64,000 nucleotides of DNA from an uncultured bacterium (GTDB taxonomy: Bacteria; Patescibacteriota; Minisyncoccia; Phycocordibacterales; GWA1-40-21), in NCBI GenBank assembly GCA_903831305.1, contig CAIKXE010000011.1:12002-76001 (forward strand). The letters are read 5' to 3'. Shown here in pieces: positions 12,191-34,006 of the stretch. The translations under genes and the position numbers were made by a program. Each line of letters starts with the position of its first letter. Position 1 is the stretch's first letter. The notes below the pieces were generated by a model. That model saw nothing but the letters and a program-made list of their open reading frames with translations. It had not been told where the DNA came from and did no database searches.

Positions 12191-12193
12191 TTT

Positions 12194-16132: not shown

Positions 16133-16630
16133 ATGAAAAGAGAGATTAAATCACTGATGAAAACCCGGCAAATGGGTGTCCTGCCTTATACCTACAGAGA
16201 CTTGGATAGCTTGGAGGAGATAAGAGACCGGAAGATAGATGGTGTTCACGCCTATTGTTTTTATAATGATAAATTGGTTCTGGTTTATTCTGATAAAAAA
16301 GGCTATTGGACCCCAGCCGGCGGAGGAACAGAGAAAGGAGAAAATGTTGAAGAAACAGTTATAAGAGAAGTTAAGGAGGAAACCAATATGAGAGTTTTGA
16401 AGCAGAAAATAATTGGCTATCAGGAAGTCTTTGAACCAGACAGAATCCATGTTCAAACCAGATCAGTTTGTTTGGTAGAACCTTATGGACCTTTTGTTTC
16501 TGATCCCGACGGTGATATTACGGTCATAAAATTAATTGATCCAAAAGATTACAAACAATATTTTGACTGGGGAGAGGTGGGGGATTATATTATGCAGAGA
16601 GCGTTGGAATTATTAAAAGATTTAAAGTAA
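16133..16630 (+). CDS. NUDIX hydrolase
   Basis: Nudix box GGGTEKGENVEETVIREVKEETN. Confidence 0.8.
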   Translation: MKREIKSLMKTRQMGVLPYTYRDLDSLEEIRDRKIDGVHAYCFYNDKLVLVYSDKKGYWTPAGGGTEKGENVEETVIREVKEETNMRVLKQKIIGYQEVFEPDRIHVQTRSVCLVEPYGPFVSDPDGDITVIKLIDPKDYKQYFDWGEVGDYIMQRALELLKDLK

Positions 16631-16631
16631 A

Positions 16632-17702: not shown

Positions 17703-17706
17703 AAAT

Positions 17707-18830: not shown

Positions 18831-20324
18831 ATGCAAAATAATCTAAACGAGAAAACTACAGAAAAGAAAATAACAAGTCGAAGCGAGGATTATTCCCAGT
18901 GGTATTTAGATGTTATTGAGGCCGCTGATTTAGCTGATAGCAGTCCAGTTCGTGGTTGCATGATCATTAAGCCTTATGGCTACGCGATTTGGGAGAAAAT
19001 TCATGATATTTTAGACAAGAAGTTCAAACAGCAAGGTGTTCAGAACGCGTATTTTCCACTATTTATACCGCAAAGCTTTTTGACGAAAGAAGCTAAACAT
19101 GTCGAGGGTTTTGCTAAAGAGGTGGCTATAGTAACTCATCACCGGTTAGAAAGTGACGGCCATGGTGGATTAAAACCTGCTGGTGAACTAGCCGAGCCTC
19201 TAATTATACGTCCAACCTCTGAAACCATAATTTATGATACTTTTTCTCGTTGGATCCACTCCTATCGTGATTTACCATTATTAATTAACCAATGGGCAAA
19301 TGTGGTTCGTTGGGAAATGAGAACGCGTCCGTTTCTCCGTACTACGGAATTCCTATGGCAGGAGGGACATACTGCTCACAAAAATAAAGAGGAAGCCGAA
19401 GAAATGACCTTAAAGATGATCAAAGAATATCAAGATTTTTCGGAAACATATATGGCTCTGCCTGTTATCCCGGGATACAAAACTGAGAGTGAAAAATTTG
19501 CCGGCGCAGATTATACCACCTGCATCGAGGCTATGATGCAAGACGGAAAATCTTTACAAGCCGGTACCTCTCATCTGCTAGGTCAAAACTTTGCGAAGGC
19601 TTTTGAGGTTTCTTTTTTAAATGAAAAAGGTGAAAAAGAGTATGTCTGGCAAACAAGCTGGGGCGTCAGTACTCGTCTGATTGGCGCTTTAATTATGGCT
19701 CATAGTGATGATAAAGGATTAGTCTTGCCTCCTAATTTAGCACCTATTCCAGTAGTCATCATTCCTATCGGCCAAGGGAAACCAGATTATGAGCAGGTTC
19801 TAAGTTTTGCCAAGAATCTGTCAGTGAAGATAAGCAAAGAAACTAATTTAACAATTAATCTTGACGATCGAGACCTTCGTCCTGGAGAAAAATTTTTCTA
19901 TTGGGAAAAAAGAGGTGTGCCTATTAGGATTGAAATTGGACCCAAGGATTTGCAAAACAATTCTGTCGTCTTTGCTCGTAGAGACACCGGGGAGAAGGCC
20001 ACCGTCTTAATTCAGGATGTTATTCTTAAAACTCGAGAAACTCTTAACGATATTCAAAAGAGTTTATATCTGAAGGCTGAATCATTCAGAAATGATAACA
20101 CTCATTTCATTGATAATCTGGCTGATTTTAAGAAAATGGTTGATGGTAAAGGAGGATTTATTAATTCTCATTGGTGCGGAAGCTCTGAGTGTGAAGCTAA
20201 GATTAAGGAAACAACTGGGGCGACCATCCGTTGTGTACCTTTTAATCAGAAAGAAGAGGTAGGGAAGTGTATTTTATGTGGAGGTAAATCTAATGGTCGG
20301 GTCATGTTTGCAAAGTCGTACTAA
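18831..20324 (+). CDS. proS: proline--tRNA ligase, archaeal/eukaryote-type with C-terminal Zn-binding domain
   Basis: Class II motifs, ...IVTHHRLE..., and the typical C-terminal ...GKCILCGGKSNGRVMFAKSY. Confidence 0.85.
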   Translation: MQNNLNEKTTEKKITSRSEDYSQWYLDVIEAADLADSSPVRGCMIIKPYGYAIWEKIHDILDKKFKQQGVQNAYFPLFIPQSFLTKEAKHVEGFAKEVAIVTHHRLESDGHGGLKPAGELAEPLIIRPTSETIIYDTFSRWIHSYRDLPLLINQWANVVRWEMRTRPFLRTTEFLWQEGHTAHKNKEEAEEMTLKMIKEYQDFSETYMALPVIPGYKTESEKFAGADYTTCIEAMMQDGKSLQAGTSHLLGQNFAKAFEVSFLNEKGEKEYVWQTSWGVSTRLIGALIMAHSDDKGLVLPPNLAPIPVVIIPIGQGKPDYEQVLSFAKNLSVKISKETNLTINLDDRDLRPGEKFFYWEKRGVPIRIEIGPKDLQNNSVVFARRDTGEKATVLIQDVILKTRETLNDIQKSLYLKAESFRNDNTHFIDNLADFKKMVDGKGGFINSHWCGSSECEAKIKETTGATIRCVPFNQKEEVGKCILCGGKSNGRVMFAKSY

Positions 20325-20404: not shown

Positions 20405-21229
20405 TTGGGTTATAATACCAAGATGAAAGTTGCTTTAGTAAATTTTGCCGAATATGAGAAATTCAATAGCACTGTTTCCTTTAAACAGGACTTGGAATTC
20501 TTAGTGGAAAACAAAATTGACTATGTTGATTATTGTTTTAACTACGATAAGAAGTTAGACCTATTGGCCGGTTTCAGAAAGGCCCTTGCTAATCCTGAGA
20601 TAGATTTGATTTGGTTTGTCTGTGGCGGAAATAAAACAATAAAATTTCTGGACGATATTGATTGGGAGGTCGTCAAAAAAGCTAATAAAATATATGCCGG
20701 GGCGTCTGACTTTACTCATTTCTCATTTAAAGCAGTTCAAAACGGGCAGGTTTGTTATTACGGTACTAGTTTACAAGAAATCAAAAAATATCATCCATCG
20801 CCTAAATCAAGAAAATATCTAGCTGATTTTTTACAGACTGGAAAAATTGAAAAATATAATCATACAAATCTGTATAAAACTGTGAGTAATTTGGATGAGG
20901 AGAAAATCGTAGGTGGACATACTTTCCTGACCACTTTTATGCTTAATGAGGTCAAAATTGATTTAAGAGATAGATTTCTGTTTCTTGAACACCACTATAT
21001 ACCAGGTGAATCCCTAGAGGATCTTGAATATTTTGTTGATCAAATCAAAATGGTCACCAAAGGTAATTTACCAAAGGGCTTTATCTTTGGTCACAGCATG
21101 TTGTTTGGAAAAAAAGGTAAAATTATGAATGTCGCCACGATTAATAAAAAAATGGTTGAATGGCTAAGGGAGTATGATTTGCCTATAGCCTATATTGATC
21201 ATTTTAAACAGATCGTTAAATTTTCTTAA
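20405..21229 (+). CDS. S66-family LD-carboxypeptidase/MccF-like serine peptidase (tentative)
   Basis: GASDFTHF matches the G-x-S-D-x-T nucleophile motif of the S66 family. C-terminal GFIFGHS is a candidate catalytic His region. Confidence 0.5.
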   Translation: MGYNTKMKVALVNFAEYEKFNSTVSFKQDLEFLVENKIDYVDYCFNYDKKLDLLAGFRKALANPEIDLIWFVCGGNKTIKFLDDIDWEVVKKANKIYAGASDFTHFSFKAVQNGQVCYYGTSLQEIKKYHPSPKSRKYLADFLQTGKIEKYNHTNLYKTVSNLDEEKIVGGHTFLTTFMLNEVKIDLRDRFLFLEHHYIPGESLEDLEYFVDQIKMVTKGNLPKGFIFGHSMLFGKKGKIMNVATINKKMVEWLREYDLPIAYIDHFKQIVKFS

Positions 21230-21234
21230 ATATT

Positions 21235-22146
21235 ATGTACAGGAAAGGTGTCTCAGCGCTTATAATCAACAATAAGAACGAGTTTCTTTTAGTTAATTTA
21301 GAATCTTTTGAGGATAAGTATTTTGCAATTCCCGGCGGTGGAGTTGAACTAGGAGAGACTTTAGAAAACGCAGTATATCGAGAGATACATGAAGAGTTGA
21401 GCATAGAGAAAAAATCTCTTCAATTTGTAGGGCAAAGTGATATTCCTGTTAGATTTAAATTCAAGTTAATAAAAATGATTCGTGACGATAAGGATTATGA
21501 AGGGTCAGAACGATATTTTTTTGGATTCTGCTTTGTTGGAGATAATAATGAAATTAAACCGAAAAAAGGAGAGGTTAGATTTTATAAGTGGATACCCCTT
21601 ATACAGTTGAAAGACTATTTACTTTTTGATGGGCAATTAAAAGATACTCAAGAAAAAATAAAAGAAATATTTTCTGACCTGCAACAAATTCAAACAGGAG
21701 ATAAAAAAATGGAAACTGTTCTCCAGTGCGTTATAGATGTATCAGAGAAAACCTTGAAAGAGATGGCGGAAACTTTAGGAATGTCTTGGGTTAATCCACG
21801 AGTTACTGATACATTCTATCCTTTCCGGGATTCGTTCTTAGGAAAGTGGAAGGTTGAAGTGCAAAGACTTCGAAGAAAGGAGAAATTCGAGGAAATTGTA
21901 CGGGCGACCAGAGAAGACAATTGGCAGCCAGCGACTATTTATCACCTTCTAACCCTTCTCACTTCACCAGATAGTAAGCATCTATCTGGGTCATTTATGG
22001 CACCGGGATCCTTGTGTATAGATGACTTTGAATATCCGGGGTGTGTTGTGTTAAGTATAAAGGGTGAGGACAAAAAGATAGGCCTCGGTAATTGGAGAGG
22101 TTCTAAAATTGGTGGTTATGATGTCGTAAGGGTGAAGAGAGAGTAA
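21235..22146 (+). CDS. NUDIX hydrolase fused to C-terminal domain of unknown function
   Basis: Nudix box PGGGVELGETLENAVYREIHEELS. C-terminal ~150 aa unassigned. Confidence 0.7.
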   Translation: MYRKGVSALIINNKNEFLLVNLESFEDKYFAIPGGGVELGETLENAVYREIHEELSIEKKSLQFVGQSDIPVRFKFKLIKMIRDDKDYEGSERYFFGFCFVGDNNEIKPKKGEVRFYKWIPLIQLKDYLLFDGQLKDTQEKIKEIFSDLQQIQTGDKKMETVLQCVIDVSEKTLKEMAETLGMSWVNPRVTDTFYPFRDSFLGKWKVEVQRLRRKEKFEEIVRATREDNWQPATIYHLLTLLTSPDSKHLSGSFMAPGSLCIDDFEYPGCVVLSIKGEDKKIGLGNWRGSKIGGYDVVRVKRE

Positions 22147-22222
22147 GCCGTAATTATAAATGATGGGGAATGGGAGATAACTCCATAATGATTTTTCACC
22201 AGATTTTAATATAAAATATTAT

Positions 22223-22723
22223 ATGAATGATTCATCACACACAATTCTTATACCATATCAACCGTCCTGGAAAGATAAGTTTGAGGTAGAGAAGATAAAA
22301 ATTAAAGATATATTTGGCGATAAAGCTATTGCCGTTGAGCATATCGGTAGTACCTCGATTCCTGGTCTTTCGGCAAAACCAATTATTGATATTGCCGTGA
22401 TGATAGAAAATCATAAAGAAGCCGATGTTTTTACTGGATTATTAGATAAAATAAATTATCGATTTGATTCATTCAGCACCGAGAGACACTTTTATACCAA
22501 AGGTGATCCCATAGAATATCATCTCTCTATTGCCTATAAAGATAAGGGTGGTTTTTGGGAAAGGCAGATTTTATTTAGAGATTATTTAAGAAATCACTCA
22601 GATTTACGGGGTGAATATCAAAAATTAAAAGAAGATTTACTTAAAAATGATCCAACCGGTAAAGACATGTATATTAGTGGTAAAACTGAGTTTATAAAAA
22701 AAATCTTAGACTTGTGTAAATAA
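22223..22723 (+). CDS. GrpB-family (UPF0157) nucleotidyltransferase-fold protein
   Basis: VEHIGSTSIPGLSAKPIIDI is typical of GrpB. Confidence 0.65.
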   Translation: MNDSSHTILIPYQPSWKDKFEVEKIKIKDIFGDKAIAVEHIGSTSIPGLSAKPIIDIAVMIENHKEADVFTGLLDKINYRFDSFSTERHFYTKGDPIEYHLSIAYKDKGGFWERQILFRDYLRNHSDLRGEYQKLKEDLLKNDPTGKDMYISGKTEFIKKILDLCK

Positions 22724-22741
22724 TATGATATCATCCAATAT

Positions 22742-23410
22742 ATGAAGGAATCTTTAATAAATAAATTAATTCTAATCTCTAAGAATCGGCAAGTAAAAAA
22801 TGATCCATCTCATGACTTTCAACATGTTCAGCGAGTATTAAATCTTGCTGTTGAGATTGGTAAAAAAGTTGAAGCAGATCTTGATATTGTCATTCCTGCG
22901 GCCTTATTTCATGATACGGTTGTTTATCGTAAAGACAGTCCGAAGAGTAAATATGAGACCGATGAAAGTGCTGAAGTTGCTGGTCATATTTTAAAAAAGA
23001 TTCGCGAGTATCCAAAAGAAAAAATCGAAAAAGTAAAGATCTGTATTAGACAGTGTTCTTTTTCTAAGGGTATTATTCCTGATATTTTGGAGTCAAAAGT
23101 ATTACAGGATGCTGATATGCTTGAATCTACTGGAGCCATATCAATTATGCGTACTTTTTCGTCCGGTGGACAAATGAATCGTCCATTCTATGATTTAAAT
23201 GATCCTTTTTGCAAAAAAGGTTTATTCGGAGTACACTCAGGATTGTGGTTGTTTTATAAAAGGTTGTTACTTGTTGAAAAAAGAATGCATACAAAATTTG
23301 CTAAAAAGATAGCAAAAAGAAGGACTAATTTTCTGATAACTTTTCTAGATGAATTTAAAAAAGAGCTTATTGAAACCGAAATAATTTATGAAAAAAGAAG
23401 ATCTAGATAA
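22742..23410 (+). CDS. HD-domain phosphohydrolase
   Basis: H...HD signature: HDFQHVQRV, AALFHDT, LQDADMLE. Confidence 0.7.
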   Translation: MKESLINKLILISKNRQVKNDPSHDFQHVQRVLNLAVEIGKKVEADLDIVIPAALFHDTVVYRKDSPKSKYETDESAEVAGHILKKIREYPKEKIEKVKICIRQCSFSKGIIPDILESKVLQDADMLESTGAISIMRTFSSGGQMNRPFYDLNDPFCKKGLFGVHSGLWLFYKRLLLVEKRMHTKFAKKIAKRRTNFLITFLDEFKKELIETEIIYEKRRSR

Positions 23411-24263
23411 CACTGGTAATCTGTGTGATAAATTGGACCTTGTTGGAGAAAACAGACGGCAGGATGCTGAAAAAATTATAAAAATAGTAGAACACGAAAA
23501 GGAATCGTGGAATAATATATTTGAGGAGGAATTAAAAAATATAGATAATGTAAATTATTTATCTTACTGGTGGAGTGATCATTATTGCCAGATTGTAGAA
23601 TATATAGATAAATCCATAAAGTTTAAATGTACACCATCAATTTTGGAAGCTGGGTGTGGCTCTGGTCAATCAACTCTTCAGTTGTCAACAAAAACAAAGT
23701 TGATATCACTTTTGGATATTTCACCAGTTGCACTTGATTTAGCTAAAAAACTTTCAAAAATATACAATAAAAATAATGTCGAATTTATAGAGGGTAATAT
23801 TTTATCTATGCCATTTAAAGACAAGGAATATGATCTTACCTGGAATATTGGCGTTTTGGAGCATTACGATAAAACATTGATTCCTTATTTGCTAAAGGAA
23901 ATGATTAGGGTAACAAAAGATGGTGGTTATATAGCAATAGGAATACCTAATCCAAAGTCTTTGGCTATAAAAAAAGCTAAATTTCTCGCAAACGAGAAGT
24001 TAAAAAATCTTTTAAAATTTATCCCTGGTTATAGACTAGATACTGAAAATTTATATTCAGCTAAAGAGGTAGAAGAGATTCTTTTTGAAGTTAGTAGAAA
24101 AATAGGGCTTAAATTAAGTGAAATAAAAGTAACCCACGTAGGTAGTCCTTTGTTAGTGTGGTCTCCTAAATTTCTTATTAAGTTTTTTAAAATTTTTGAA
24201 AAATTTGAATTTATAAAAAAAAGAAAGTTTCTAATATTGATAATTGCTAAAATTAATTATTAA
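23388..24263 (+). CDS. class I SAM-dependent methyltransferase
   Basis: Motif I ILEAGCGSGQSTLQL followed by LLDISPVALDLA. Confidence 0.75.
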   Translation: MKKEDLDNTGNLCDKLDLVGENRRQDAEKIIKIVEHEKESWNNIFEEELKNIDNVNYLSYWWSDHYCQIVEYIDKSIKFKCTPSILEAGCGSGQSTLQLSTKTKLISLLDISPVALDLAKKLSKIYNKNNVEFIEGNILSMPFKDKEYDLTWNIGVLEHYDKTLIPYLLKEMIRVTKDGGYIAIGIPNPKSLAIKKAKFLANEKLKNLLKFIPGYRLDTENLYSAKEVEEILFEVSRKIGLKLSEIKVTHVGSPLLVWSPKFLIKFFKIFEKFEFIKKRKFLILIIAKINY

Positions 24264-24269
24264 AATATC

Positions 24270-25727
24270 GTGGCAAACTATTTCAACAAATTTATTAAAA
24301 TTGCAGAAATTAATAAAGATAATGTTGCTATTATCTATCCTATTTATAAAGATGGGATAAATAATGGATGTATAAAATATTTATATATAGATATAATCAA
24401 TCATATTCTATCAGCCGGGCCTATTATCTATAAAACAAATATTAAAAAAAATCCTGTTGGCTTATTTATTCCGAACCATCCATTATTTACGTCTGCACTT
24501 ATTAGCGTCTTATCGCAGGATTTTATTGCCGTTCCGATTAATCCAAAATCAACAAAGGAAATAATTTTAAAAATAATATCTGATAATAATTTAGACGTAA
24601 TTATTACTGATAATCATTATTATCAATATTTGATTGGTATCTGTTCCACTAATCAGGTTATTCTAAAAATAGGTGATATAATTTCGACACCTTCTTTTCA
24701 AAAAATCCCTAAAAGTCAGAAAAAATCTGGTGATATTGCAATTATCTCTTACACCAGTGGTACCTCAGGTAACCCCAAAGGGGCATTAATTACAAACAAG
24801 AATATACTATTTGTAACAATGAAATACTGTAGTATCTATCGTCTTGATAAAAACAGCCATGTATTAGCTGCTCTGCCTCTTTGGCATAATTACGGGACAT
24901 TTGATGTTTTGCTGGATACACTCATTAGTGCAGGAACTATTGTCTTAATGGATGATTGGGTAAGTAAAAAAGCGATTGATATAATACATAAGTACAAAAT
25001 TTCTGTATTTCCTGGTTTCCCATTTATGTTTATGGATATTGTTAATGATGATTCCAGAGAATTAGATTTTTCAACTTTAAAAGTTTGCGAGTCAGGCGGA
25101 TCTGGATTACCTCGCAGATATATTGAGCGGTTTAAGAAAAAGACAGGTATAGTTATAACTGAAGGTTACGGTTCAGCAGAAACCACGTCTCTTACACATA
25201 TAAATAATCTAACTGAGACCAGAAGAGCTGGAAGTATTGGTGAAAATATTCCTGAAGCTTTCTGTAAAATACTAGACCAAGGGGGGAGGAGAGTTAAAAC
25301 TGGTGAATGTGGAGTATTGTGGGTTCGTGGTCCAATGGTTTGTAAAGGTTATTCTAATCTTAAGTCAAACAGTTTTAATGGAAAATGGTTTAATACTGGG
25401 GATATTGCTTGTCTTGATTCGAACAATAATTATTGTGTCGTCGGTAGATTAGATAATACTAAAAAGGTTGATACTGATATTGACTCATATTCAACCAGCG
25501 TCGGGGAAATTTTGTACGAATTTGATGGCTTAATTAAATTTAACATTAAAAAAAAGGCAGGAAATAATTTAGATTATTTGTACGTTGTTTTAAAAGATAA
25601 TAGACGAAGAGCTGATTTCAGAGATTTTTTGAAAAGTAAATTTGATAAAGGTAGGTTCTACAAAATAGTTTTTGTAAAAGATATTCCAATCACGGCAACT
25701 GGTAAAATTAAGCATAGTCTTTCTTAA
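24270..25727 (+). CDS. AMP-dependent synthetase/ligase (adenylate-forming enzyme)
   Basis: AMP-binding motifs ISYTSGTSGNPKGA, TEGYGSAETT, NTGDIA and the C-terminal GKIKH lysine. Confidence 0.85.
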   Translation: MANYFNKFIKIAEINKDNVAIIYPIYKDGINNGCIKYLYIDIINHILSAGPIIYKTNIKKNPVGLFIPNHPLFTSALISVLSQDFIAVPINPKSTKEIILKIISDNNLDVIITDNHYYQYLIGICSTNQVILKIGDIISTPSFQKIPKSQKKSGDIAIISYTSGTSGNPKGALITNKNILFVTMKYCSIYRLDKNSHVLAALPLWHNYGTFDVLLDTLISAGTIVLMDDWVSKKAIDIIHKYKISVFPGFPFMFMDIVNDDSRELDFSTLKVCESGGSGLPRRYIERFKKKTGIVITEGYGSAETTSLTHINNLTETRRAGSIGENIPEAFCKILDQGGRRVKTGECGVLWVRGPMVCKGYSNLKSNSFNGKWFNTGDIACLDSNNNYCVVGRLDNTKKVDTDIDSYSTSVGEILYEFDGLIKFNIKKKAGNNLDYLYVVLKDNRRRADFRDFLKSKFDKGRFYKIVFVKDIPITATGKIKHSLS

Positions 25728-25884
25728 ATATTAGCTAATATATAATTGTGGGCTGGTCAGCTTTTTTAAAGAGTAAAATTTAGTGTTTAACTTAAGGACG
25801 CATACTTGTGCGTGTGTGTTGAATAAATATGCATTGTATGTTATATTATAAACTATTAAGTTTAATAGTTTAAATTAGTAAATT

Positions 25885-27357
25885 ATGTATTTAATATCAC
25901 AGACAACAGGTATAACAACGTTATTAATTTTTGGATTAGTAATGATAGTCATTGTTTATTTTCTGACAAGAAAGCAATTTAACTCCAAAGATGCTTTCTT
26001 GGTGGCAAGACGTGAGGTTGGCTGGCTTCGTGGATCCTTAAGTATTGCTGTAAGTTGGATCTGGGCCCCAGCAGTTTTTATCGCTTCAATGCAGGCCTAC
26101 AATCAAGGTATAGCTGGAGCTTTCTGGTTTATTGTACCTAATGTTGTCTGTTTTTTTGTTTTTGCACCTTTGGCGATTAGGTTAAGGAGGTTTTTACCAG
26201 AAGGATATACCTTGCCGCAGTTTATTTTAAAAAGGTATGATAATGATAAAAAAACTCATTTAGCTTTTCTGGTACTATTTTTTGGTTATCAATTAGGTGC
26301 AATTATTATTAACACATTAGCTGCCGGAGTCTTGTTAAATGCTTTGACTGGCATCAGTTTTTATCTTGTCGTCTCATTGATAATGGTTTTGGTATTAATA
26401 TATGCAATAATGAGTGGTTTAGAGGCTTCAATAATTACTGATGTTATTCAAATGGCAATGGTTCTGCTATTTTGTTTTATTCTAGTCCCGTGGGTAATTA
26501 TAAAAGCCGGTGGCTTTTCTGCAGTTACTGGAGGGTTTGGTGGTATAACTGGAATGTTTGGTAATGTGTTTAACCCTTGGATTGCCTATTCCTTTGGTAT
26601 AGCCACAACACTAAGCTTAATCTCTGGTCCAATTGGTGATCAAATGTTTTTTCAGAGAGTTTATGCTTCAAAAAAAGAGCAAATTGTTAAAACTTTTGTC
26701 GCTGGCGGTTTAATTTTTGGATTAGTTCCAACTATCTTGTGTCTCTTAGGTTTTATCGCAGCCAATCCACATTTTAGTTCCCTTATTACCGTTGCAGATC
26801 CTCAAATGGTGGGACCAGTTGTTATTGGTTATTTCTTACCAAAGATAGCATTAGTGGCGTTCCTTTTTATGGCCTTTGCAGCTTTGGCATCCACTATTGA
26901 TAGTGCATATTGTGCGATAAGTTCATTAGGTACAATAGATATTTATAGAAAATATTTTAATCCGGAAGCTAGTGATAGACAATTGCTAAGTATGTCACGT
27001 AAGGTCATGTTGGCTATGGCACTACTTGGTACTGGAATAGCCCTACTTCAACCTAAGCTTTTATGGGTCTTCTTAATTTATGGTGCTTTAGCATCAGCCG
27101 GTTTTTTCCCAACAGTTTTCAGTCTATATTGGAAAAAATTAAACAAACAAGGAGTGTTTTGGGCAGTTACGCTTTCTTTAATTATCGGTTTACCTCTTTC
27201 GATATATGCCAATATTACAGAGAATGTGAACCTTATTGTGTTGGCGTCAATATTAAGTGTGGTTATCGGATTAATTACTTGTTTGATAGCTGGTTTCTTA
27301 AATAAAAAAACTGTATACAACTTTGCAAGTGGTGAAATCGAGGCAGTTGTCGAATAA
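25885..27357 (+). CDS. multi-pass permease, sodium:solute symporter-like (tentative)
   Basis: About 12-13 hydrophobic helices with G/A-rich TM packing. Family assignment is by overall resemblance only. Confidence 0.45.
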   Translation: MYLISQTTGITTLLIFGLVMIVIVYFLTRKQFNSKDAFLVARREVGWLRGSLSIAVSWIWAPAVFIASMQAYNQGIAGAFWFIVPNVVCFFVFAPLAIRLRRFLPEGYTLPQFILKRYDNDKKTHLAFLVLFFGYQLGAIIINTLAAGVLLNALTGISFYLVVSLIMVLVLIYAIMSGLEASIITDVIQMAMVLLFCFILVPWVIIKAGGFSAVTGGFGGITGMFGNVFNPWIAYSFGIATTLSLISGPIGDQMFFQRVYASKKEQIVKTFVAGGLIFGLVPTILCLLGFIAANPHFSSLITVADPQMVGPVVIGYFLPKIALVAFLFMAFAALASTIDSAYCAISSLGTIDIYRKYFNPEASDRQLLSMSRKVMLAMALLGTGIALLQPKLLWVFLIYGALASAGFFPTVFSLYWKKLNKQGVFWAVTLSLIIGLPLSIYANITENVNLIVLASILSVVIGLITCLIAGFLNKKTVYNFASGEIEAVVE

Positions 27358-27358
27358 A

Positions 27359-28336
27359 ATGAAAAAAATTCTTTTGATAGGTCTAGGCGGTACAATAGCT
27401 TGTTCGGCCACTAAAGAAGGTTTAGTCCCGATGTATTCGCCTGAAAGGTTTCTTTCTCAAGAACCCAGACTTTTAACGGTTGCTCATATAAAGACTATTC
27501 AGTTGATGATGAGGACCATTATCTACCCTAAGGACTGGATAACTATTGCCAAATTCATATCAAAGTCCGTTAAAGATTTTGATGGTTTTGTGATAACGAT
27601 GGGAACAGATACTCTAGCTTATACTTCCTCGATGTTGTCTTTTATGCTTAGAAGTATCAATAAACCTGTAATTATAACCGGGGCCATGATTCCGATCGAG
27701 AAGGAAAATTCTGATGCTAGGAAAAATCTGATAGACAGCGTTATATTCGCCTGTGAACCAACCTCAGGAATTTTTGTTGTCTTTAATGGTAACGTTATCA
27801 GGGGGTGCCGAGCGTCCAAAGTGTCTGGAGTAGAAATTGACGCGTTTAAGAGTATTAATTTTCCTTTGATCGCAAAGATTATTAATGGACAAGTCAAATA
27901 TGATTTATCAATAAAAGAAGAAATTAGAGAAAATAATAAACTCTCTTTAGAGGTAAAAATCGATACAAAAGTATTGGATATTAAGCTTACCCCACAGGTA
28001 GAGCCAGATTTATTTGGGAAGCTTTTAGGTTACAAAGGTTTTGTAATTGAAGGGTATGGTGACGGCAATATATCTGATAATTTAATTCCAGTGATTATAA
28101 AACTAATTAAGGGAGGGAAAGTGGTAGTTTTAGCGTCTCAATGTGCTTACGGCCATGTAGAGCATAAATATAGAGGTGGTCTTATGGCGGTGAAGAATGG
28201 TGCAATTTCGGTCAGAGACATGACTAAGGAAAGTGCCCTTACTAAATTGATGTGGTGTATGGGAAAGACGAAGAATGTAAAAACCATAGGTAATATGATG
28301 ACTAGTAATATGTGCGGCGAAATTAAGATAATATAA
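27359..28336 (+). CDS. L-asparaginase (type I-like)
   Basis: ILLIGLGGTIACS (TGGTIAG motif) and VITMGTDTLAYTSS (HGTDT motif). The ATG at 27359 is preferred over the track start at 27323, which overlaps the upstream gene. Confidence 0.8.
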   Translation: MKKILLIGLGGTIACSATKEGLVPMYSPERFLSQEPRLLTVAHIKTIQLMMRTIIYPKDWITIAKFISKSVKDFDGFVITMGTDTLAYTSSMLSFMLRSINKPVIITGAMIPIEKENSDARKNLIDSVIFACEPTSGIFVVFNGNVIRGCRASKVSGVEIDAFKSINFPLIAKIINGQVKYDLSIKEEIRENNKLSLEVKIDTKVLDIKLTPQVEPDLFGKLLGYKGFVIEGYGDGNISDNLIPVIIKLIKGGKVVVLASQCAYGHVEHKYRGGLMAVKNGAISVRDMTKESALTKLMWCMGKTKNVKTIGNMMTSNMCGEIKII

Positions 28337-28340
28337 ATAT

Positions 28341-28982
28341 ATGAGATTGTATTTATCATCATTTAAAATAGGAAATCACCCAGAGAGATTAGCTGATTTA
28401 ACTGATGGTGGTAAGAAAGCGGTCTTTATCGTTAATGCTTTGGATTATAAGTTGGAATCTCGAAATAAATTTTTAGCAAGCGAAATCCAAATGCTTGGTG
28501 AGTTAGGTTATGATGTTGAAGAATTGGATTTGAGGATGTGGTTTGGCAAGAAAGAAAAAGATCTTGAAGAATATCTAAGAACAAAGAATCTCGTTTGGGT
28601 TAATGGAGGGAATTCCTTCTTACTTAGAAGAGCTATGAAACAAAGTGGGTTTGATAAAATTATAACTAAGCTTCTGAAAGAGGACGTGATTGTTTATGCC
28701 GGCTTTAGTGCCGGATGTGCTGTCCTTCATAAGGATTTGCACGGAATTGATATAACTGATGATCCATACATCTTAGCCGAAGGATATCATAAGAATGTTG
28801 AATGGGTGGGTCTCGATATTATTGATTTCAATATTGTGACTCATTTTGATTCTAATCAGAATGAGTCAGACGAGTCCAGAAAGGAGATGAAATTTTATAA
28901 AGATAATAATATACCATTTAAGACATTACGTGACGGTGAGGTCTTAATCGTTAATGGCAAAAATGTAGAAATAATAAAATAA
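28341..28982 (+). CDS. S51-family peptidase (dipeptidase E/cyanophycinase-like)
   Basis: VWVNGGNSFLLRR and VYAGFSAGCAV (Ser nucleophile context). Confidence 0.7.
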   Translation: MRLYLSSFKIGNHPERLADLTDGGKKAVFIVNALDYKLESRNKFLASEIQMLGELGYDVEELDLRMWFGKKEKDLEEYLRTKNLVWVNGGNSFLLRRAMKQSGFDKIITKLLKEDVIVYAGFSAGCAVLHKDLHGIDITDDPYILAEGYHKNVEWVGLDIIDFNIVTHFDSNQNESDESRKEMKFYKDNNIPFKTLRDGEVLIVNGKNVEIIK

Positions 28983-28983
28983 T

Positions 28984-30216
28984 ATGAGATACATAGTTAC
29001 CAAAAATAAACAGATAAAAAAAAGAATGCGCTCTTTTAACGAATATTATTCATTATTAAGAGAGGCAATAGTTAGCGGTAATCTCAAAAGTTCATTAGAC
29101 CGTGGTGCTTTTACGCATCCAAAACAAATCTTAAATCGTGAAATTATAAATTCTCTTGGTCTAAAAAGACATAGGATTTCTTTAGGTTATGGTCAAGAGG
29201 TTGGAGAAGATATCGTCAGAGAAAAGATTGTCGAACGAGAGAATCTTATTCATGGTACAGATTATAATCTAGAAAATGTAACGGTGGTTGCTGGGGCATG
29301 GTTTGGTGTTGAGGTTGTTATTGAGGAAATTACACAAAAATATGCAAATAAGAAACCAAAAATTGCTGTAATTGGCCCCACTCATTATCAGTTGTTCCAA
29401 AGACCAATTGAAGTCCTCGGTTTGGAGGTAATAGGTTTTGACTTCGTAAATTTTAAAGGTAGTACTCCTAAGACAAAGGAAGAAATTGATCAGATATTAA
29501 AATGTAAGCCAAACGTTGTTTTTGTTACTAATCCTAATAATCCAATTGGAGAATATTTTCCATCAAATTTACTTAGGTATCTTATCTCAACATGTAAAAA
29601 GAGGAAAATATTTGTCATTATTGATGAAATGCAGAATTTTTTAGCTACAGATGGTAAAGGAATAAATTATGGAAAATGGATAAAAGCTAAAAATGTTATC
29701 CGTATAGATTCTTTTTCAAAGCATTATGCTTTGGCAGAATATCGCGTTGGATGGGTTATTGCTGATAAAAGTATTATTGGTAGCAGATATACTGGAATCA
29801 CACAACATGTAAGAGGCTTGATGGGTAATGCTCCAAGGGCCGCGAATGATGCCATTGTAAAATTATTAGACTTTGAGATAAACGAGATTAGAAATAAAAT
29901 AGAGCATCCTCTGGGACGAAGAATTAAGCTGTTGTATAAAAAAGAGGATTTTATAATTAAACTTCTTTCTAAGAACCCAAGAATAGAAATAATACATAGA
30001 GATGCCTGTTTTAATTTGACCGTCAGAATAAAAGACTTTCCAAGTGATATAGAAATGTCGAGACGATTGATGAACCGTGGTACTCTAATTATGCCATGCA
30101 CTGGTTATGGGTATCGAACTGAGGACGTGGTTATGAGGATAACTTTTGCGGAAAGATGGAGTAGAATAAAGCATTCCATGGCAGTTCTGACTAGTATATT
30201 GAATGAAAAAAAATGA
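28984..30216 (+). CDS. PLP-dependent aminotransferase, class I/II
   Basis: DSFSKHYALAEYRVGWVIA, the S-x-S-K...R-x-G PLP-lysine motif. Confidence 0.75.
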   Translation: MRYIVTKNKQIKKRMRSFNEYYSLLREAIVSGNLKSSLDRGAFTHPKQILNREIINSLGLKRHRISLGYGQEVGEDIVREKIVERENLIHGTDYNLENVTVVAGAWFGVEVVIEEITQKYANKKPKIAVIGPTHYQLFQRPIEVLGLEVIGFDFVNFKGSTPKTKEEIDQILKCKPNVVFVTNPNNPIGEYFPSNLLRYLISTCKKRKIFVIIDEMQNFLATDGKGINYGKWIKAKNVIRIDSFSKHYALAEYRVGWVIADKSIIGSRYTGITQHVRGLMGNAPRAANDAIVKLLDFEINEIRNKIEHPLGRRIKLLYKKEDFIIKLLSKNPRIEIIHRDACFNLTVRIKDFPSDIEMSRRLMNRGTLIMPCTGYGYRTEDVVMRITFAERWSRIKHSMAVLTSILNEKK

Positions 30217-31607
30217 AAGAAAAAGTTTGGATAAAATTTTATGAAGGAGGTGTCTTAAGGGAAGAATTGACCTTTATACAAGCTGAAGAAAGAATTAAGG
30301 CAAAAGTCGCTGAATTGTCTCAACTTGGTATTGAGAATGGGGATCGTGTTGTAATTAGACTACCTAATTCACCTCTGTGTGTTATAACATATTTGGGAAT
30401 ATACCGTTTGGGTGCCGTAGCTGTTCCCGTCGGTCTATTGGAGGATCAGATTAGGTTGAATTTTATAATCTCTGACTCCGGATCAAAAGCAATAATTGAT
30501 AATTCTGGTATTAAGATCTTACCTTTAAAATCTTTGAATAATAAAATAAAGAGTGTCTGTACGATAATTTATACTTCTGGGACGACTGGTACGCCTAAGG
30601 GTGTATGTTTAAATTGGAATAACTGGGTGAAGAATGCAGAGTCGTTAATTAAGCACCATCATATTAATGAAAATACGGTTTTTGCGAGTCCTCTTTTTTT
30701 GTCGCATTGTAACGCTCATGGTTTGGCAATGATCACTACATATATCTCGAAATGTACGTGGATATTGTTTGATAAAAGTCCGAAAAATATCTTGGAAATA
30801 ATTTCAAAAGAAAAAGTACGTATTCTTAGTGTGGTCCCGTCCATTTTATATGATATTTATAATTCAAATAAAAATTGGAAGCCAAATAAAGAACTTCGGT
30901 ATATCATAACCGCGGCTGCGCCACTGAGCCCCGATCTGTTACAAAGCGTTATGGATACTTGGAAGACTAGGGTAATTCAAGGTTATGGTCTCTCAGAAAG
31001 TACTAATTTTTCATGTACTATGCCGACCAATCTAAGTGAAAAGGTATATAAACAGGTAATGTTTCCATGGCCATCTATTGGTGTGGCATTAAGTGGAGTT
31101 AAAATAAAGATAGGTCGTAAAAATAAAGAGGAAGAATTGGGGGAATTATTTATATCATCAAAATCAAACTTTAGTGGATATTGGAATAAAGATAAGATCA
31201 AACTAAGGCCGACTATTCATACGGGCGATTGGGGTTATTACAAAACTATAGCACGAAAAAGATACTTTTATTTTAAGGGAAGAATTAAGGAAATAATAAA
31301 TAGGGGTGGTGAAAAAATTAGTCCAATTGAATTGGAATATGAGTTAAGAAAAAATGGCTTGAAGGGAGAATTCGCTATAATATCATTGCGTAGTGAAAAA
31401 TATGGTGAAGAAGTTGGCCTTGCAGTTTGCAAACATTTTGATCTGTCGTTAATCGAGAAGATACCAAGATATCGTAGACCAAAACAGGTATTTCTTCTAA
31501 AGACTCTCTTTTATACACCGAATGGTAAATTACAAAGGAGGAAAATTTCAGAATTTTGTTGTAATAGTAAAGCTGAAATACTAATTAACCCGGATCCATT
31601 GACTTAA
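30213..31607 (+). CDS. AMP-dependent synthetase/ligase (second adenylate-forming enzyme)
   Basis: IIYTSGTTGTPKGV, QGYGLSEST, HTGDWGY, PNGKLQRR. Confidence 0.85.
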   Translation: MKEKVWIKFYEGGVLREELTFIQAEERIKAKVAELSQLGIENGDRVVIRLPNSPLCVITYLGIYRLGAVAVPVGLLEDQIRLNFIISDSGSKAIIDNSGIKILPLKSLNNKIKSVCTIIYTSGTTGTPKGVCLNWNNWVKNAESLIKHHHINENTVFASPLFLSHCNAHGLAMITTYISKCTWILFDKSPKNILEIISKEKVRILSVVPSILYDIYNSNKNWKPNKELRYIITAAAPLSPDLLQSVMDTWKTRVIQGYGLSESTNFSCTMPTNLSEKVYKQVMFPWPSIGVALSGVKIKIGRKNKEEELGELFISSKSNFSGYWNKDKIKLRPTIHTGDWGYYKTIARKRYFYFKGRIKEIINRGGEKISPIELEYELRKNGLKGEFAIISLRSEKYGEEVGLAVCKHFDLSLIEKIPRYRRPKQVFLLKTLFYTPNGKLQRRKISEFCCNSKAEILINPDPLT

Positions 31608-31654
31608 TCTCCTTGAGATGGTAAACTTGGTTTAGATTTTGTTTATAGGTAAGA

Positions 31655-32980
31655 ATGTACATTAACAAGCCACCCATAACGGTGGCAGAAAGGGAGTGTT
31701 ATATGTGGCAGATAAAGGTTCTTCTTGAGAAGTTCGTGTCGTTACTTGGTGTCGAAGTCAAGGTACGTGGACGGATCATCTCGATTCGTCGAATGAAGAG
31801 ATCAGTATTCGCTGATCTTTTTTCCATCGACTCGAAAGTACAATGTCGCTTTGATCCGGCAGGCGGTCTCTGCCCGAACAATGGCGACTTGGTTGAGGTC
31901 GTTGGGAAATGTGTTGTGTCAAAGAGTGGTGAATCGACGATTGACGTCTCAAGCGTAGTGGTTGTGGGCAAATGGTCTGCTAACATCGACTTTAAGGAAG
32001 TGTCGAATGGCGGATCTAGTCCACTTCTGGCTTTCATGCCAGGGGCGTATGGTCGCTTCCACTACTCACAGGTCGCTAGAAACCAAGTGAGGACATTCTT
32101 GACTTCCGAGGGTTATTTCGAGGTTCAGACCCCAATTCTTGGAAGGAATTACAACGGAGGTAGATCCTTTCCTGTATCGAGCTTTTGTTCTGGTAACAGG
32201 ATTGGTTTCAACAGAACGACGGTGGAAGATCGCATGCAAGCATTGATTGCAATGGGGTACGAAAGAGTTTTCCAGGTCGGTAGTGTGTTTCGTAGCGGAA
32301 AGGAATTAACCTTCCTCGAAGGGTACGAAGCATTCACTGAATGGGAAGCCGGCAAATGTCGTATCAAGCAGTTGCTTGCATCTGTAGTAGAAAAGCTCAT
32401 TCAAAGCGGAATCGGGAGTCCAAATGACACATCCGACCACCTGATTGGTTGTGATTGGTTAGAAGTGGATTTCCTTGACAGTGTGAGTGAGTCGACTAAG
32501 GTGTCGTCACAGCAGATAATGGAGGTAGACAGTACTCTTGCTGGATTTCTCAGAGATAGAGGGGTCATTAAGGAGGAAGAAGTATCGCCAGAAACCATCG
32601 CCGACGAACTGGCTAATCTTGTCGCCGAGGCGACGGGTGTGCCAACGATAGTCAATGGTTTTCCGGTCTGGTCATCTCCGTTGTATGCATTAAGTGAGGA
32701 TGGTGGTGAACGACTCGTTCGTAGTCGCATGTACATTCCAGGTCAAAAGGGTGGGTTTGAAATAGGTATGCAGGAAAACAATTACGAGAGATTTACTGAA
32801 AGGATTTCCCGACAGCGAAAGATGTGGAATTTGGCTACTGATGACGACCGAGTGAGAGAGTCGGATCTCTCTACGGTTATATCAGGTGGCTTACCACCAA
32901 CCTTTGGCTACGGGCTCAGTCCAGACAGACTCGTAAAGATATGGCGTCAGGATTGCAGTAATGACCCATATCGTGAGTAG
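31655..32980 (+). CDS. class IIb aminoacyl-tRNA synthetase paralog (AsnRS/AspRS/LysRS-like) with N-terminal OB-fold and apparently shortened motif-2 loop; GC-rich, compositionally foreign
   Basis: OB-like VEVKVRGRIISIRRMKRSVFADL. Motif 1 GYFEVQTPIL. Motif 2 core VFQVGSVFRSG-KELTFLEGYEAF lacks the ~8-aa ...RH..EF... loop. Motif 3 GGLPPTFGYGLSPDRLV. GC is visibly far above the flanks. Confidence 0.65.
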   Translation: MYINKPPITVAERECYMWQIKVLLEKFVSLLGVEVKVRGRIISIRRMKRSVFADLFSIDSKVQCRFDPAGGLCPNNGDLVEVVGKCVVSKSGESTIDVSSVVVVGKWSANIDFKEVSNGGSSPLLAFMPGAYGRFHYSQVARNQVRTFLTSEGYFEVQTPILGRNYNGGRSFPVSSFCSGNRIGFNRTTVEDRMQALIAMGYERVFQVGSVFRSGKELTFLEGYEAFTEWEAGKCRIKQLLASVVEKLIQSGIGSPNDTSDHLIGCDWLEVDFLDSVSESTKVSSQQIMEVDSTLAGFLRDRGVIKEEEVSPETIADELANLVAEATGVPTIVNGFPVWSSPLYALSEDGGERLVRSRMYIPGQKGGFEIGMQENNYERFTERISRQRKMWNLATDDDRVRESDLSTVISGGLPPTFGYGLSPDRLVKIWRQDCSNDPYRE

Positions 32981-33102
32981 GTGTTTCTCGAAGGTTTGAG
33001 AACCCATCCATGAAGCCGCCGAGGTTACACTCGGCGGCTCTTTCATCATTTATAAATATTTTTTCGCTTTCTTTTTATGTTTTTTTATGTTTAGATAGTT
33101 GT

Positions 33103-33507
33103 ATGTTGAACGATATTTTAACTATTTCAATCTCAGAGAAGTATATCGGTAGTAGTGGGTGTGTGAATCGCACTCATTATCTGAACTTACTTATGGAAGC
33201 ACAAAATATTTCTTTGATTAAGCACAAAATAAGTTTTGATGATATTGAGAAAAAAAATAATATACATTTTGTTCAAAGAGCATTTTCTATTGAATTTATT
33301 AAGCCTTTATTTCTGAATGATGAGGTCGTTATAAAAATATCAATACCCACACTTGGTTTGTCCAGTTTTGTATTAAAACAAGAGATTACAAAAAATAATC
33401 AAATTGTAACAACTGCCCAGACCGTGTATGTTGCCGTTGACAACTCAAAGAATAAAATATTATTACCTGATAGTATTCGAACTTTATTTTCATTAAAAAA
33501 GGGGTAA
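33103..33507 (+). CDS. hotdog-fold acyl-CoA thioesterase-like protein (tentative)
   Basis: From the internal ATG at 33103 (MLNDIL...). VNRTHYLNLLMEA resembles 4HBT/YbgC thioesterases. The upstream part of the track ORF (33010-33102) is hydrophobic junk adjoining the GC-rich gene. Confidence 0.45.
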   Translation: MLNDILTISISEKYIGSSGCVNRTHYLNLLMEAQNISLIKHKISFDDIEKKNNIHFVQRAFSIEFIKPLFLNDEVVIKISIPTLGLSSFVLKQEITKNNQIVTTAQTVYVAVDNSKNKILLPDSIRTLFSLKKG

Positions 33508-33520: not shown

Positions 33521-34006
33521 ATGAAACTTACGCCTAAAATTGCAAAATTAACAGCTGAAAAGTATTTTAGAAAGCATAAAGATAAGGAGGAACGGGACTT
33601 TGCTAGGGTTCATACTGCGGCCGTAGTTGAAATAGCAGTAATTCTTGCAAAAAAGTTTAAAACGGATGTTTCTACAGTAGAAATATCTGGCTGGCTTCAT
33701 GATATCGGTTCTATCGTAGAGAGATCTGATCACGCTAAATACAGCCTTGATTTATTGAACAAAGAAGGATTTGAAGTCAGTCCGTTGATTAAGGATTGTA
33801 TTCTTAATCACGGGACAGATGGCAAACCGGAATCTAAAGAGGCTAAAATACTACAGATAGCGGACAAGCTCAGTATTTTGAGTATTCCTGTACTTAAACT
33901 CTTATTTAAACAAAAAAGCATCACCCCGTATGATATTGAATTTGTTGATAAAATGACAACAGGAGCGGTAGCTTACCTGAAAGAATTAAGCACAAAAGGA
34001 ATATAA
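33521..34006 (+). CDS. HD-domain protein
   Basis: RVHTAA, SGWLHDIGS, NHGTDG. Confidence 0.6.
   Translation: MKLTPKIAKLTAEKYFRKHKDKEERDFARVHTAAVVEIAVILAKKFKTDVSTVEISGWLHDIGSIVERSDHAKYSLDLLNKEGFEVSPLIKDCILNHGTDGKPESKEAKILQIADKLSILSIPVLKLLFKQKSITPYDIEFVDKMTTGAVAYLKELSTKGI

Follow-up and report, generated by a model that had tools for sequence, protein, structure and literature searches.

The analysed window is a 64,000-nt (64-kb) stretch of contig CAIKXE010000011.1 from an uncultured member of the Patescibacteria (candidate phyla radiation, CPR). The subject of this study is a 13-kb block of genes within it (positions 20405-33507), and particularly the operon in its right half, which encodes a divergent paralogue of lysyl-tRNA synthetase (LysRS) designated KRSp. 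An original prediction, made from the sequence alone, had regarded the whole block as one accessory cluster for aminoacyl-nucleotide-like small-molecule synthesis or detoxification in a reduced genome; the term 'reduced genome' is a fair description of this source. The coordinates of the open reading frames (ORFs) given in that prediction were correct, with every reported ORF on the + strand, and its domain labels were nearly all upheld by Pfam and NCBIfam searches (Table 1), the exception being the type assigned to the aminoacyl-tRNA synthetase (aaRS) paralogue. The proposal of a single 13-kb cluster was not supported by comparative genomics, which splits the block at a 157-nt gap (25728-25884).

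Organisation and distribution of the module

The window proteins were compared by tblastn with 34 related loci, which came from searches for identical proteins, from 185,579 species genomes that were scanned and from a scan of metagenomes. Some metagenome contigs carry exact copies of window proteins. The gap at 25728-25884 is AT-rich and the largest in the block, and it coincides with the start of synteny in relatives, so the block is best split into a module and unrelated neighbours. The right half is a rare conserved CPR operon, and the six genes upstream are unrelated accessory neighbours, a delimitation in which we have high confidence.

In the window the module spans 25885-32980 and comprises, in order, genes for an SSF symporter, a type I asparaginase, an S51 peptidase, an aminotransferase (AT), an adenylate-forming ligase (AMP2) and KRSp, followed, in the window's clade, by a thioesterase. 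Its genes overlap or lie 1-4 nt apart (AT and AMP2 overlap by 4 nt), except for a spacer before KRSp, and are likewise overlapping or closely spaced in relatives. The AT, AMP2 and KRSp genes are adjacent in every non-Saccharibacteria locus with sufficient flanking sequence, and the symporter gene joins them in nearly all loci, where it is placed upstream, downstream or divergently depending on the locus. The asparaginase occurs both in the window's clade and in the distant L024/L025 clade, the KRSp proteins of which are 40-42% identical; in L024 it is followed by a divergent S51 peptidase. The closest relative, L010 (80% identity), has the same order of genes from the symporter through to the thioesterase, with a MacB-type ABC transporter before the module and YchF, NUDIX, LeuRS, MurG and GluRS on the other side. 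The expected co-localisation thus holds across lineages for the aaRS paralogue, the adenylate-forming enzyme, the aminotransferase and the Asp/Asn hydrolases, but not for the six upstream genes.

KRSp is carried by only 8 of the 185,579 species genomes. The KRSp-bearing genomes include an uncultured bin (80% identity), Candidatus Falkowbacteria, Parcubacteria (a 1.27-Mb contig), Shapirobacteria, Saccharibacteria and one metagenome-assembled genome (MAG) labelled Woesearchaeota. Genes of mobile elements lie beside the module in several loci, namely an IS30-like gene in L005, serine recombinase and ParB genes in L008, an IS3-like gene in L024 and Replic_Relax on a contig from JGI. These data show that the module is one conserved, laterally mobile operon of Patescibacteria.

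In L014, L024 and L025 the module and a bacterial-type class II LysRS are located on MAG contigs labelled as Woesearchaeota (DPANN archaea), beside an IS3-like transposase and a Fic protein. This reflects either cross-domain transfer of the entire cassette, including LysRS, or a mis-binned CPR contig.

Table 1. Genes of the 13-kb block and promoter-like sites in the window
Feature	Position	Strand	Evidence
SSF symporter, importer family, first module gene	25885-27357	+	Pfam SSF 3.4e-33; TIGR00813 152 bits
Type I (cytosolic, GatD-related) asparaginase	27323-28336	+	TIGR00519 264.2 bits (cutoff 260.5)
Peptidase S51 (PepE/cyanophycinase family; class I glutamine-amidotransferase-like fold)	28341-28982	+	Pfam S51 1.4e-24
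AT, fold-type I pyridoxal phosphate (PLP) AspAT/AlaAT-like aminotransferase	28984-30216	+	Pfam Aminotran_1_2
AMP2, ANL-superfamily adenylate-forming ligase, acyl-CoA-synthetase-like	30213-31607	+	Pfam AMP-binding 2.3e-57
KRSp, divergent class II LysRS paralogue	31655-32980	+	Pfam tRNA-synt_2 and weak OB fold
YbgC-like hotdog (4HBT) thioesterase	33010-33507	+	Pfam 4HBT weak; TIGR00051 49.6 bits
S66 peptidase	20405-21229	+	PF02016 50.8 bits (cutoff 25); PF17676 21.3 (cutoff 23.7, marginal)
NUDIX	21235-22146	+	Pfam/NCBIfam
GrpB	22223-22723	+	Pfam/NCBIfam
HD	22742-23410	+	Pfam/NCBIfam
Class I methyltransferase (MTase)	23388-24263	+	Pfam/NCBIfam
AMP-ligase 1 (AMP1)	24270-25727	+	AMP-binding; benzoate-/feruloyl-CoA-ligase-like
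Promoter-like site TTGAAT-17-TATATT, TG-extended	25819-25847	+	Consensus scan; in the 157-nt gap before the symporter
Promoter-like site TTGACT-17-TAAACT	31599-31627	+	Alignment of AMP2-KRSp spacers

KRSp, a divergent paralogue of LysRS

The true start of KRSp is probably the ATG at 31703 (425 aa), which has GGGAG 6 nt upstream and, unlike the annotated start at 31655, fits the homologues. Relatives of this protein are few. About 38 were found among 5.8 billion proteins (34-80% identity), after which identity drops to that of canonical LysRS at 23-26%, and a hidden Markov model search of 1.84 billion cluster representatives recovered about 25 full-length members above 270 bits, with canonical LysRS appearing from about 150 bits. 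Compared with the PDB, the family profile scored 145 bits against LysRS, at most 53 bits against AspRS and 45 bits against EpmA. KRSp falls below the cutoffs of the LysRS models themselves (NF001756, 108.1 bits against a cutoff of 468; TIGR00499, 92 against 427.6). Its AF2 model (pLDDT 88.5) has a two-domain fold, consisting of an N-terminal OB anticodon-binding domain and a class II core, and the top Foldseek matches were all full-length class II LysRS (TM ~0.72). The profile scores and the fold matches rule out the Asx-type aaRS paralogue of the original prediction. In the literature searched, no description of such a LysRS paralogue from CPR was found.

Residues were mapped by alignment with the LysRS of G. 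stearothermophilus and with the canonical LysRS encoded next to the module, and family counts were made over 35 sequences. The class II signature residues P160 (motif 1), R213 (motif 2) and G418/R425 (motif 3) are conserved: the motif 2 arginine is present in 34 of 35 KRSp, and the motif 3 arginine in 31, with Lys in two members and Trp in two others that share 78% identity. In human LysRS, F144 stacks on U35/U36 of the anticodon, and R136, Q155 and E195 contact the same bases (PMC11643047). By motif alignment, the counterparts of these readers in KRSp are F52 (35/35), R45 (34/35), Q63 (35/35) and E93 (28/35). Paralogues that no longer use tRNA anticodons, such as EpmA, AsnA, HisZ, GluQRS and the amino acid:carrier-protein ligases, have lost the anticodon domain. 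Since both this domain and the U35/U36 readers are retained, a case can be made for continued docking of KRSp on tRNALys or, with lower likelihood, on tRNAAsn, which shares U35-U36 with tRNALys.

The amino-acid site is partly preserved. The Glu/Glu/Tyr residues of LysU, which we take to hold the α-amine and side chain of lysine (with the offset compared with the aligned 3E9H sequence), have equivalents in E191, E222 and Y224 of KRSp that are invariant or nearly so. An invariant E374 adjoins the ε-ammonium site, in an alignment that is uncertain by about one residue. With the same uncertainty, Y280 of the LysU lysine pocket is kept as Y224, and N424, F426 and E428 are replaced by E/D369, G371 and Q373. 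The nucleotide site is remodelled: seven residues of the motif-2 loop are deleted in 35/35 KRSp, including the His/Asn/Phe ATP contacts (FRS(x)-------KExTFLEGY vs FRNEG...HNPEF), and FRNE has become FRS. A nucleotide site altered in this way speaks against KRSp being an ordinary LysRS. KRSp also lacks the N-terminal helix found in LysRS, and the family has invariant blocks of its own, YNGGxSFPV, RTTMEDRMQ, WSSPLY and a C-terminal DPY.

An EpmA-like ligase of elongation factor P (EF-P) was considered and ruled out, because the OB domain is present and KRSp scores 44.5 bits against TIGR00462 genX (cutoff 286.9); efp is found near the module in one locus only.

Three distant KRSp-like proteins (P0250, P0253 and P0256; L040 2701-4416) share the motif-2-loop deletion and carry an extra N-terminal domain of 150-180 residues, in which no Pfam domain was detected; their contigs are short and uninformative. 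One of these extended members comes from a high-GC organism, so a broader KRSp-like family reaches beyond CPR.

Linkage to canonical LysRS

Of the 10 distinct loci outside the window's clade, 9 encode a canonical class II LysRS beside or in the module, with a length of 490-507 aa and every motif intact. In eight loci it overlaps the module or lies within 0-140 nt of it: in L007 it precedes AT by 4 nt, in L008, L012, L016 and L027 it follows KRSp after 8-100 nt, in L028 it overlaps KRSp by 25 nt, and in L024 and L025 it is divergent from AT. On the JGI contig LysRS lies 0.9 kb upstream, and an Orn/Lys/Arg decarboxylase is encoded on the same contig. The adjacency survives changes of order and orientation, which suggests selection for co-expression or co-transfer and not a mere relic of duplication. 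Being Lys-type and mostly operonic with a normal LysRS, KRSp points to the biology of tRNALys or lysine rather than to aminoacyl-nucleotide antibiotics.

AMP2 and other members of the module

AMP2 has intact core motifs of its superfamily (A3 TSGTTGTPKG, A5 GYGLSE, A7 TGD, A8 GR...GGEKI, in full GRIKEIINRGGEKI, and A10 PNGK). The PDB entries that its family profile matches best are FadD13 and the malonyl- and oxalyl-CoA synthetases (1e-45 to 1e-50), but AMP2 belongs to no named equivalog among FadD, MenE, MatB, oxalyl-CoA synthetase and the adenylation domains of nonribosomal peptide synthetases (NRPS), with a best NCBIfam score of 209.5 (cutoff 476) and every other score well short of its cutoff. 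About 44 members share at least 39% identity, after which identity drops to 33%, so that the AMP2 and KRSp families are similarly small. Pairwise identities within the two families correlate with r = 0.94, making AMP2 the tightest evolutionary partner of KRSp. The block had been credited with two AMP-ligases; both AMP1 and AMP2 are indeed AMP-binding proteins, but they are only 24% identical to each other and therefore do not form a duplicated pair.

AT contains the motifs NPNNPIG, SFSK (with the PLP lysine) and RITFA (with the α-carboxylate-binding Arg), and its family profile is nearest to the AspAT of T. maritima (1O4S, 1e-18) and to 1XI9 of P. furiosus. It passes no AspAT equivalog cutoff, the best scores being 88.5 for GntC (cutoff 415) and 83 for archaeal AspAT (cutoff 550). 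An α-oxoamine synthase (BioF/Kbl-like) was ruled out, since all best matches are aminotransferases. Copies that are 46-87% identical adjoin AMP2-KRSp in all module loci. The AT of Falkowbacteria (L011/L019) is 58-59% identical to that of the Woesearchaeota-labelled clade (L024/L025), closer than AMP2 and KRSp predict, and AT is in this respect mosaic.

The symporter, a member of the sodium:solute (SSF) family, scores only ~72 bits against the PanF and PutP models; it is 86-88% identical in L005, L010 and L019, 36-40% identical in distant clades, and always located beside the module. The asparaginase matches the N and C domains of its Pfam family (1.4e-51 and 1.3e-27) and scores 220 bits for archaeal GatD, below the cutoff. 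The S51 peptidase reaches 43.7 bits against the PepE model, well below the cutoff. The thioesterase is a clade-specific appendage, kept after KRSp in the closest relative L010 only. No Asd, DapA, DapB, LysA or reductase genes were found in any locus; lysine biosynthesis by the diaminopimelate or α-aminoadipate route was accordingly ruled out.

Promoter-like sites and base composition

The consensus site found in the 157-nt gap probably marks the start of the module's transcription unit, a match of this kind being weak evidence alone. A second candidate precedes KRSp. In the window's clade AMP2 and KRSp are separated by a spacer of 47-147 nt instead of overlapping, and alignment of this region from five genomes (window 31599-31702; L010 9890-10015; L005 9835-10010; L011 9880-10060; L019 6245-6420) revealed an invariant TTGAC with TAnnnT 17 nt downstream, together with a conserved GAACnTTAACAA motif. 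The conserved arrangement suggests that the spacer may function as a promoter. No consistent RNA fold was found in the spacer; a hairpin in the window (GCCACC-CAUAAC-GGUGGC) is not kept in all five genomes.

The base composition of most block genes differs from that of the core genes of the window, which have a GC content at third codon positions (GC3) of 0.43-0.47. Most block genes have a GC3 of 0.22-0.36 (0.22-0.25 for GrpB, HD, MTase and AMP1, and 0.25-0.28 for SSF, AT, AMP2 and the thioesterase). KRSp has a GC3 of 0.48 (47.6% GC overall) vs 33-36% GC and a GC3 of 0.25-0.36 for its operon partners. This contrast recurs in L010, L005, L011 and L019 (55-80% protein identity) but not in low-GC clades, and may stem from a mosaic origin, the level of expression or some other constraint. 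Low GC3, the patchy occurrence of the module and its mobile-gene neighbours bear out the view that the locus is accessory rather than core, but no support was found for the antibiotic or detoxification role attached to it.

Upstream neighbours and other features of the window

By tblastn, the neighbourhood of the module contained none of the six upstream genes (S66, NUDIX-21235, GrpB, HD-22742, MTase and AMP1) in any of some 16 distinct related loci. The S66 assignment was confirmed by a PF02016 N-terminal domain above the cutoff and an intact Ser/Glu/His triad (motifs GASDFT, LFLEHH and FGHS), with a C-terminal domain just below the cutoff. As it lies about 2.7 kb downstream of ddl, this LD-carboxypeptidase-like gene fits an ordinary role in the cell wall. 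Two NUDIX and two HD proteins, as listed by the original prediction, do exist, but the second NUDIX (16133-16630) and the second HD (33521-34006) lie outside the block. A PADLOC scan gave no defence-system match, only generic domain-level matches to NUDIX, MTase and HD, and a defence-system reading was ruled out on these grounds.

The block's genes had also been described as almost all co-directional. They are on one strand, but this is not specific to the block, because nearly the whole stretch 2153-37809 is on the + strand and has a positive GC skew throughout; neither strand nor spacing can therefore be taken by itself to indicate an operon.

Among other genes, the window encodes Ddl, ProRS, GatB and a class II fructose-bisphosphate aldolase. 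The ProRS (18831-20324) is of archaeal/eukaryotic type (TIGR00408, 571 bits) and is preceded by genes for NUDIX, Ddl and an APH/choline-kinase-like phosphotransferase (16133-18669) with gaps of 1-4 nt. Two genes encode S49 (SppA/NfeD-like) peptidases, at 15133-16077 (-) and 42606-43394 (+), the former being among the few minus-strand genes. A defence-like island at 2153-13696 contains a GmrSD_N protein, a 1338-aa fusion of T5orf172, a ResIII helicase and an Eco57I-type methylase, a DUF2779 protein and two large proteins (310 and 1065 aa) without Pfam matches.

A LOOT RNA (RF03000) was detected at 39629-39752 (+) with 78.8 bits (gathering threshold 46.4), directly upstream of a TPR and PIF1-like helicase gene (39791-41803). 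To our knowledge this motif is known only from metagenomes, and the match places it in a CPR genomic context. Another atypical region, 54504-55088, has 59.5% GC over 585 nt (GC3 0.70 as a + ORF) in a window of 38% GC and lies just upstream of tRNA-Ser(GGA) (55195-55280). Its ORFs are open on both strands, and it has no Pfam match and no Rfam match at E<=1. Either an unusual gene or a non-coding RNA with structure may be present here.

Proposed function and alternative explanations

The locus is best read as a module for nutrient conversion or for ligation, with ties to lysine and tRNALys, and not as an antibiotic or detoxification island. In more specific terms we tentatively propose an amino-acid conversion or ligation pathway that is coupled to tRNALys and LysRS and fed by an imported substrate and aspartate, with a chemistry that we infer from the gene sequences. 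The importer would take in an amino-acid-type substrate, and the asparaginase and S51 peptidase would free aspartate (and ammonia) from Asn and Asp-peptides. Drawing on the aspartate so supplied, AT could convert an oxo-acid and an amino-acid intermediate into each other, and AMP2 would activate a carboxylate, giving an acyl-adenylate or a thioester of CoA; the relatives of AMP2 and the thioesterase in the window's clade hint at CoA-thioester chemistry. KRSp is predicted to bind a lysine-like (cationic α-amino acid) ligand and the anticodon of tRNALys and to act with canonical LysRS. It might load a lysine-related product onto tRNALys or, as we slightly favour, use Lys-tRNALys or lysyl-adenylate to couple lysine to the partner activated by AMP2.

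Several observations weigh against this proposal. In the window's clade no LysRS is adjacent to the module, and none is encoded within the 64-kb window. KRSp has its own promoter-like site and a different GC content there, and its coupling to the upstream genes may accordingly be looser in the window genome. The Saccharibacteria unit consists of an ABC importer (with an NMT1/THI5-like binding protein), KRSp and LysRS and contains no AT or AMP2. Conversely, KRSp does not accompany two AMP2-like genes, of which one is found with a BtrH_N protein and an ABC exporter and the other on a Prim-Pol element. The AT family is wider than those of AMP2 and KRSp, with distant members elsewhere (for example AT-thiolase and PALP-AT), and its phylogeny is partly discordant with theirs (r ~0.65), indicating that AT was swapped between module variants. 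No dedicated or suppressor tRNA genes were found near the module in 18 loci, and no lysine riboswitch, T-box or other Rfam element upstream of it in the window or 11 loci. Finally, the residues of KRSp were assigned only by alignment and motif correspondence, and the alignment of the hairpin is uncertain by about one residue.

The aspartate chemistry of the locus lends itself to another explanation. The original prediction had stressed Asp/Asn chemistry, and the asparaginase, the S51 peptidase and the AspAT-like enzyme do converge on aspartate, although the aaRS paralogue is not Asx-type and drops out of this group. These three enzymes would fit an Asn/Asp scavenging or catabolic operon that imports Asn or Asp-peptides, releases Asp and NH3, converts Asp to oxaloacetate by AT and uses AMP2 and the thioesterase on a derived short (di)carboxylate; KRSp would then be a regulatory or pseudo-enzyme subunit sensing tRNALys or lysine, like HisZ or the HisRS-like domain of GCN2. 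Such a scheme agrees with the closeness of AT to AspAT and of AMP2 to malonyl-/oxalyl-CoA synthetases and FadD13, and a non-catalytic binder could be expected to keep its anticodon-binding residues, to lack canonical ATP-contact elements and to include, as KRSp does, single members without the motif-2 or motif-3 arginine. We nevertheless consider it rather unlikely, because the tightest co-evolving pair is AMP2-KRSp and not the Asp-acting enzymes, asparaginase and S51 are missing from the variants L007, L008 and L012, and the operonic link to LysRS is left unexplained. Moreover, 34 of 35 members keep the motif-2 Arg and 33 of 35 have Arg or Lys at the motif-3 position, and many active-site residues specific to the family are conserved, which suggests that KRSp is catalytic. 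It is also unlikely, and to a greater degree, that there is no pathway at all, only unrelated accessory genes next to a redundant or condition-specific second LysRS like LysU of E. coli. Nearly all genes between 2 and 38 kb are on one strand and the upstream six lack synteny, as this would predict, and KRSp keeps the LysRS fold, motifs 1-3 and anticodon residues and has, in the window's clade, its own promoter-like site and core-like GC. However, chance proximity does not account for the recurrence of adjacent AT-AMP2-KRSp genes with overlapping frames at only 40-45% KRSp identity and through rearrangements, or for the co-evolution of AMP2 with KRSp (r = 0.94), and a second LysRS would not be expected to have a motif-2-loop deletion and pocket changes fixed across the family or a score of 108 bits where the LysRS model requires 468.

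An indirect tRNA-dependent or non-canonical amino-acid route, in which KRSp charges tRNALys with a lysine precursor or analogue and the PLP enzyme and/or AMP2 converts it on or off the tRNA, appears improbable. Candidate substrates would be diaminopimelate or another diamino-dicarboxylate, or else a lysine that AMP2 has modified at Nε; comparable systems are Asp-tRNAAsn/GatCAB, SepRS/SepCysS and PylS with PylBCD. The retained U35/U36 readers, the enlarged and re-charged distal pocket (F to G, E to Q, N to E/D and a new R/K358) and the GatD-related asparaginase are compatible with it, and in the indirect pathways known so far the enzymes acting on aminoacyl-tRNAs belong to the fold-type I PLP class. 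Against this, the 18 loci lack a dedicated tRNA gene, there is no recognisable reductase or decarboxylase, a co-encoded canonical LysRS leaves no obvious need for such a route, AT keeps the α-carboxylate-binding Arg typical of enzymes of free amino acids, and KRSp has a deletion of the motif-2 loop, by which the acceptor end of the tRNA is normally positioned. Least credible of all, and in our view very improbable, is the aminoacyl-nucleotide-like biosynthetic or self-resistance island of the original prediction, with the adenylating enzymes and the aaRS paralogue for synthesis and S66 and NUDIX/HD proteins for detoxification, even when extended to treat the LysRS of relatives as a resistant copy of the target. 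The intact triad of S66, the NUDIX genes after the module in L008 and L010, and the patchy, mobile nature of a module with its own LysRS in many lineages may be cited for it, the last recalling the self-resistance aaRS copies of producers of aaRS inhibitors. The MccF-like detoxification link, however, lacks comparative support, because S66 and the five other upstream genes are absent around the module in every relative, and S66 is equally compatible with a murein LD-carboxypeptidase next to ddl. Pfam and NCBIfam searches found no MccB/E-like, NRPS or polyketide synthase, carrier-protein or nucleotide- or nucleoside-tailoring gene accompanying the module, and no MccB-type adenylyltransferase, precursor peptide or nucleotide-tailoring domain between 16 and 38 kb, and the transporter is of an importer family.

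Relation to known systems and significance

KRSp shares with canonical LysRS (LysS/LysU; PDB 3E9H, 1E1T, 1BBU) the OB domain and class II core, the motif 1 Pro, motif 2 Arg and motif 3 Gly/Arg, the U35/U36 readers and the α-amine-binding Glu/Glu/Tyr; it differs in its ~20-25% identity, lack of the N-terminal helix, motif-2-loop deletion, pocket changes and co-encoded normal LysRS. EpmA/PoxA/GenX, the LysRS paralogue that β-lysylates EF-P, is similar in being LysRS-derived, outside standard tRNA charging and encoded with partner enzymes, but it has no anticodon-binding domain and a normal motif-2 loop, and the KRSp module has no EpmB-like radical-SAM aminomutase. AsnA and HisZ likewise reuse a class II aaRS core in amino-acid metabolic operons, and the asparaginase near KRSp could supply ammonia for amidation as in the former; they derive, however, from AspRS and HisRS and have no anticodon domains, whereas KRSp keeps this domain with conserved readers. 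The likeness to microcin C and MccF consists of an S66 protein with an intact triad within 5 kb of adenylating enzymes; the window has no homologues of MccA, MccB, MccD or MccE, S66 is non-syntenic, the paralogue is Lys-type and not Asp-type, and the transporter is an importer.

Cyclodipeptide synthases offer an analogy only. They are aaRS-fold enzymes with a degraded ATP site that use aminoacyl-tRNA made by a genuine synthetase, but they are derived from class I (Rossmann) enzymes and have no anticodon domain, and most KRSp keep the motif 2 and motif 3 arginines. We know of no class II equivalent. On this analogy KRSp might be the first class II counterpart of the same principle, with anticodon docking kept and ATP activation traded for Lys-tRNALys made by LysRS, a speculative and unlikely specification of our proposal. 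Lysine would in that case be transferred onto the AMP2 product, or tRNA-bound lysine acylated by it, to give a lysine conjugate from scavenged substrates; in a sister version, a tRNA-dependent route would lead from a scavenged precursor to Lys-tRNALys in organisms unable to make lysine.

Paralogues of aaRS are known for unexpected chemistry, including EF-P lysylation, asparagine synthesis, carrier-protein aminoacylation and formation of glutamyl-queuosine. The KRSp family sets itself apart from these by its retained anticodon-reading domain, its co-evolution with an ANL ligase and its operonic association with a genuine LysRS, and it is an undescribed family of LysRS paralogues in symbiotic ultra-small prokaryotes. 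Its recognition also corrects annotation, since the module genes are now labelled 'lysyl-tRNA synthetase', 'long-chain acyl-CoA synthetase' or 'aspartate aminotransferase', or are not labelled at all. Organisms of the CPR/DPANN type depend for survival on amino acids scavenged from their hosts, and the reaction of KRSp, once worked out, could bring to light a new step of metabolism linked to tRNA or a new means by which ultra-small symbionts acquire or use lysine.

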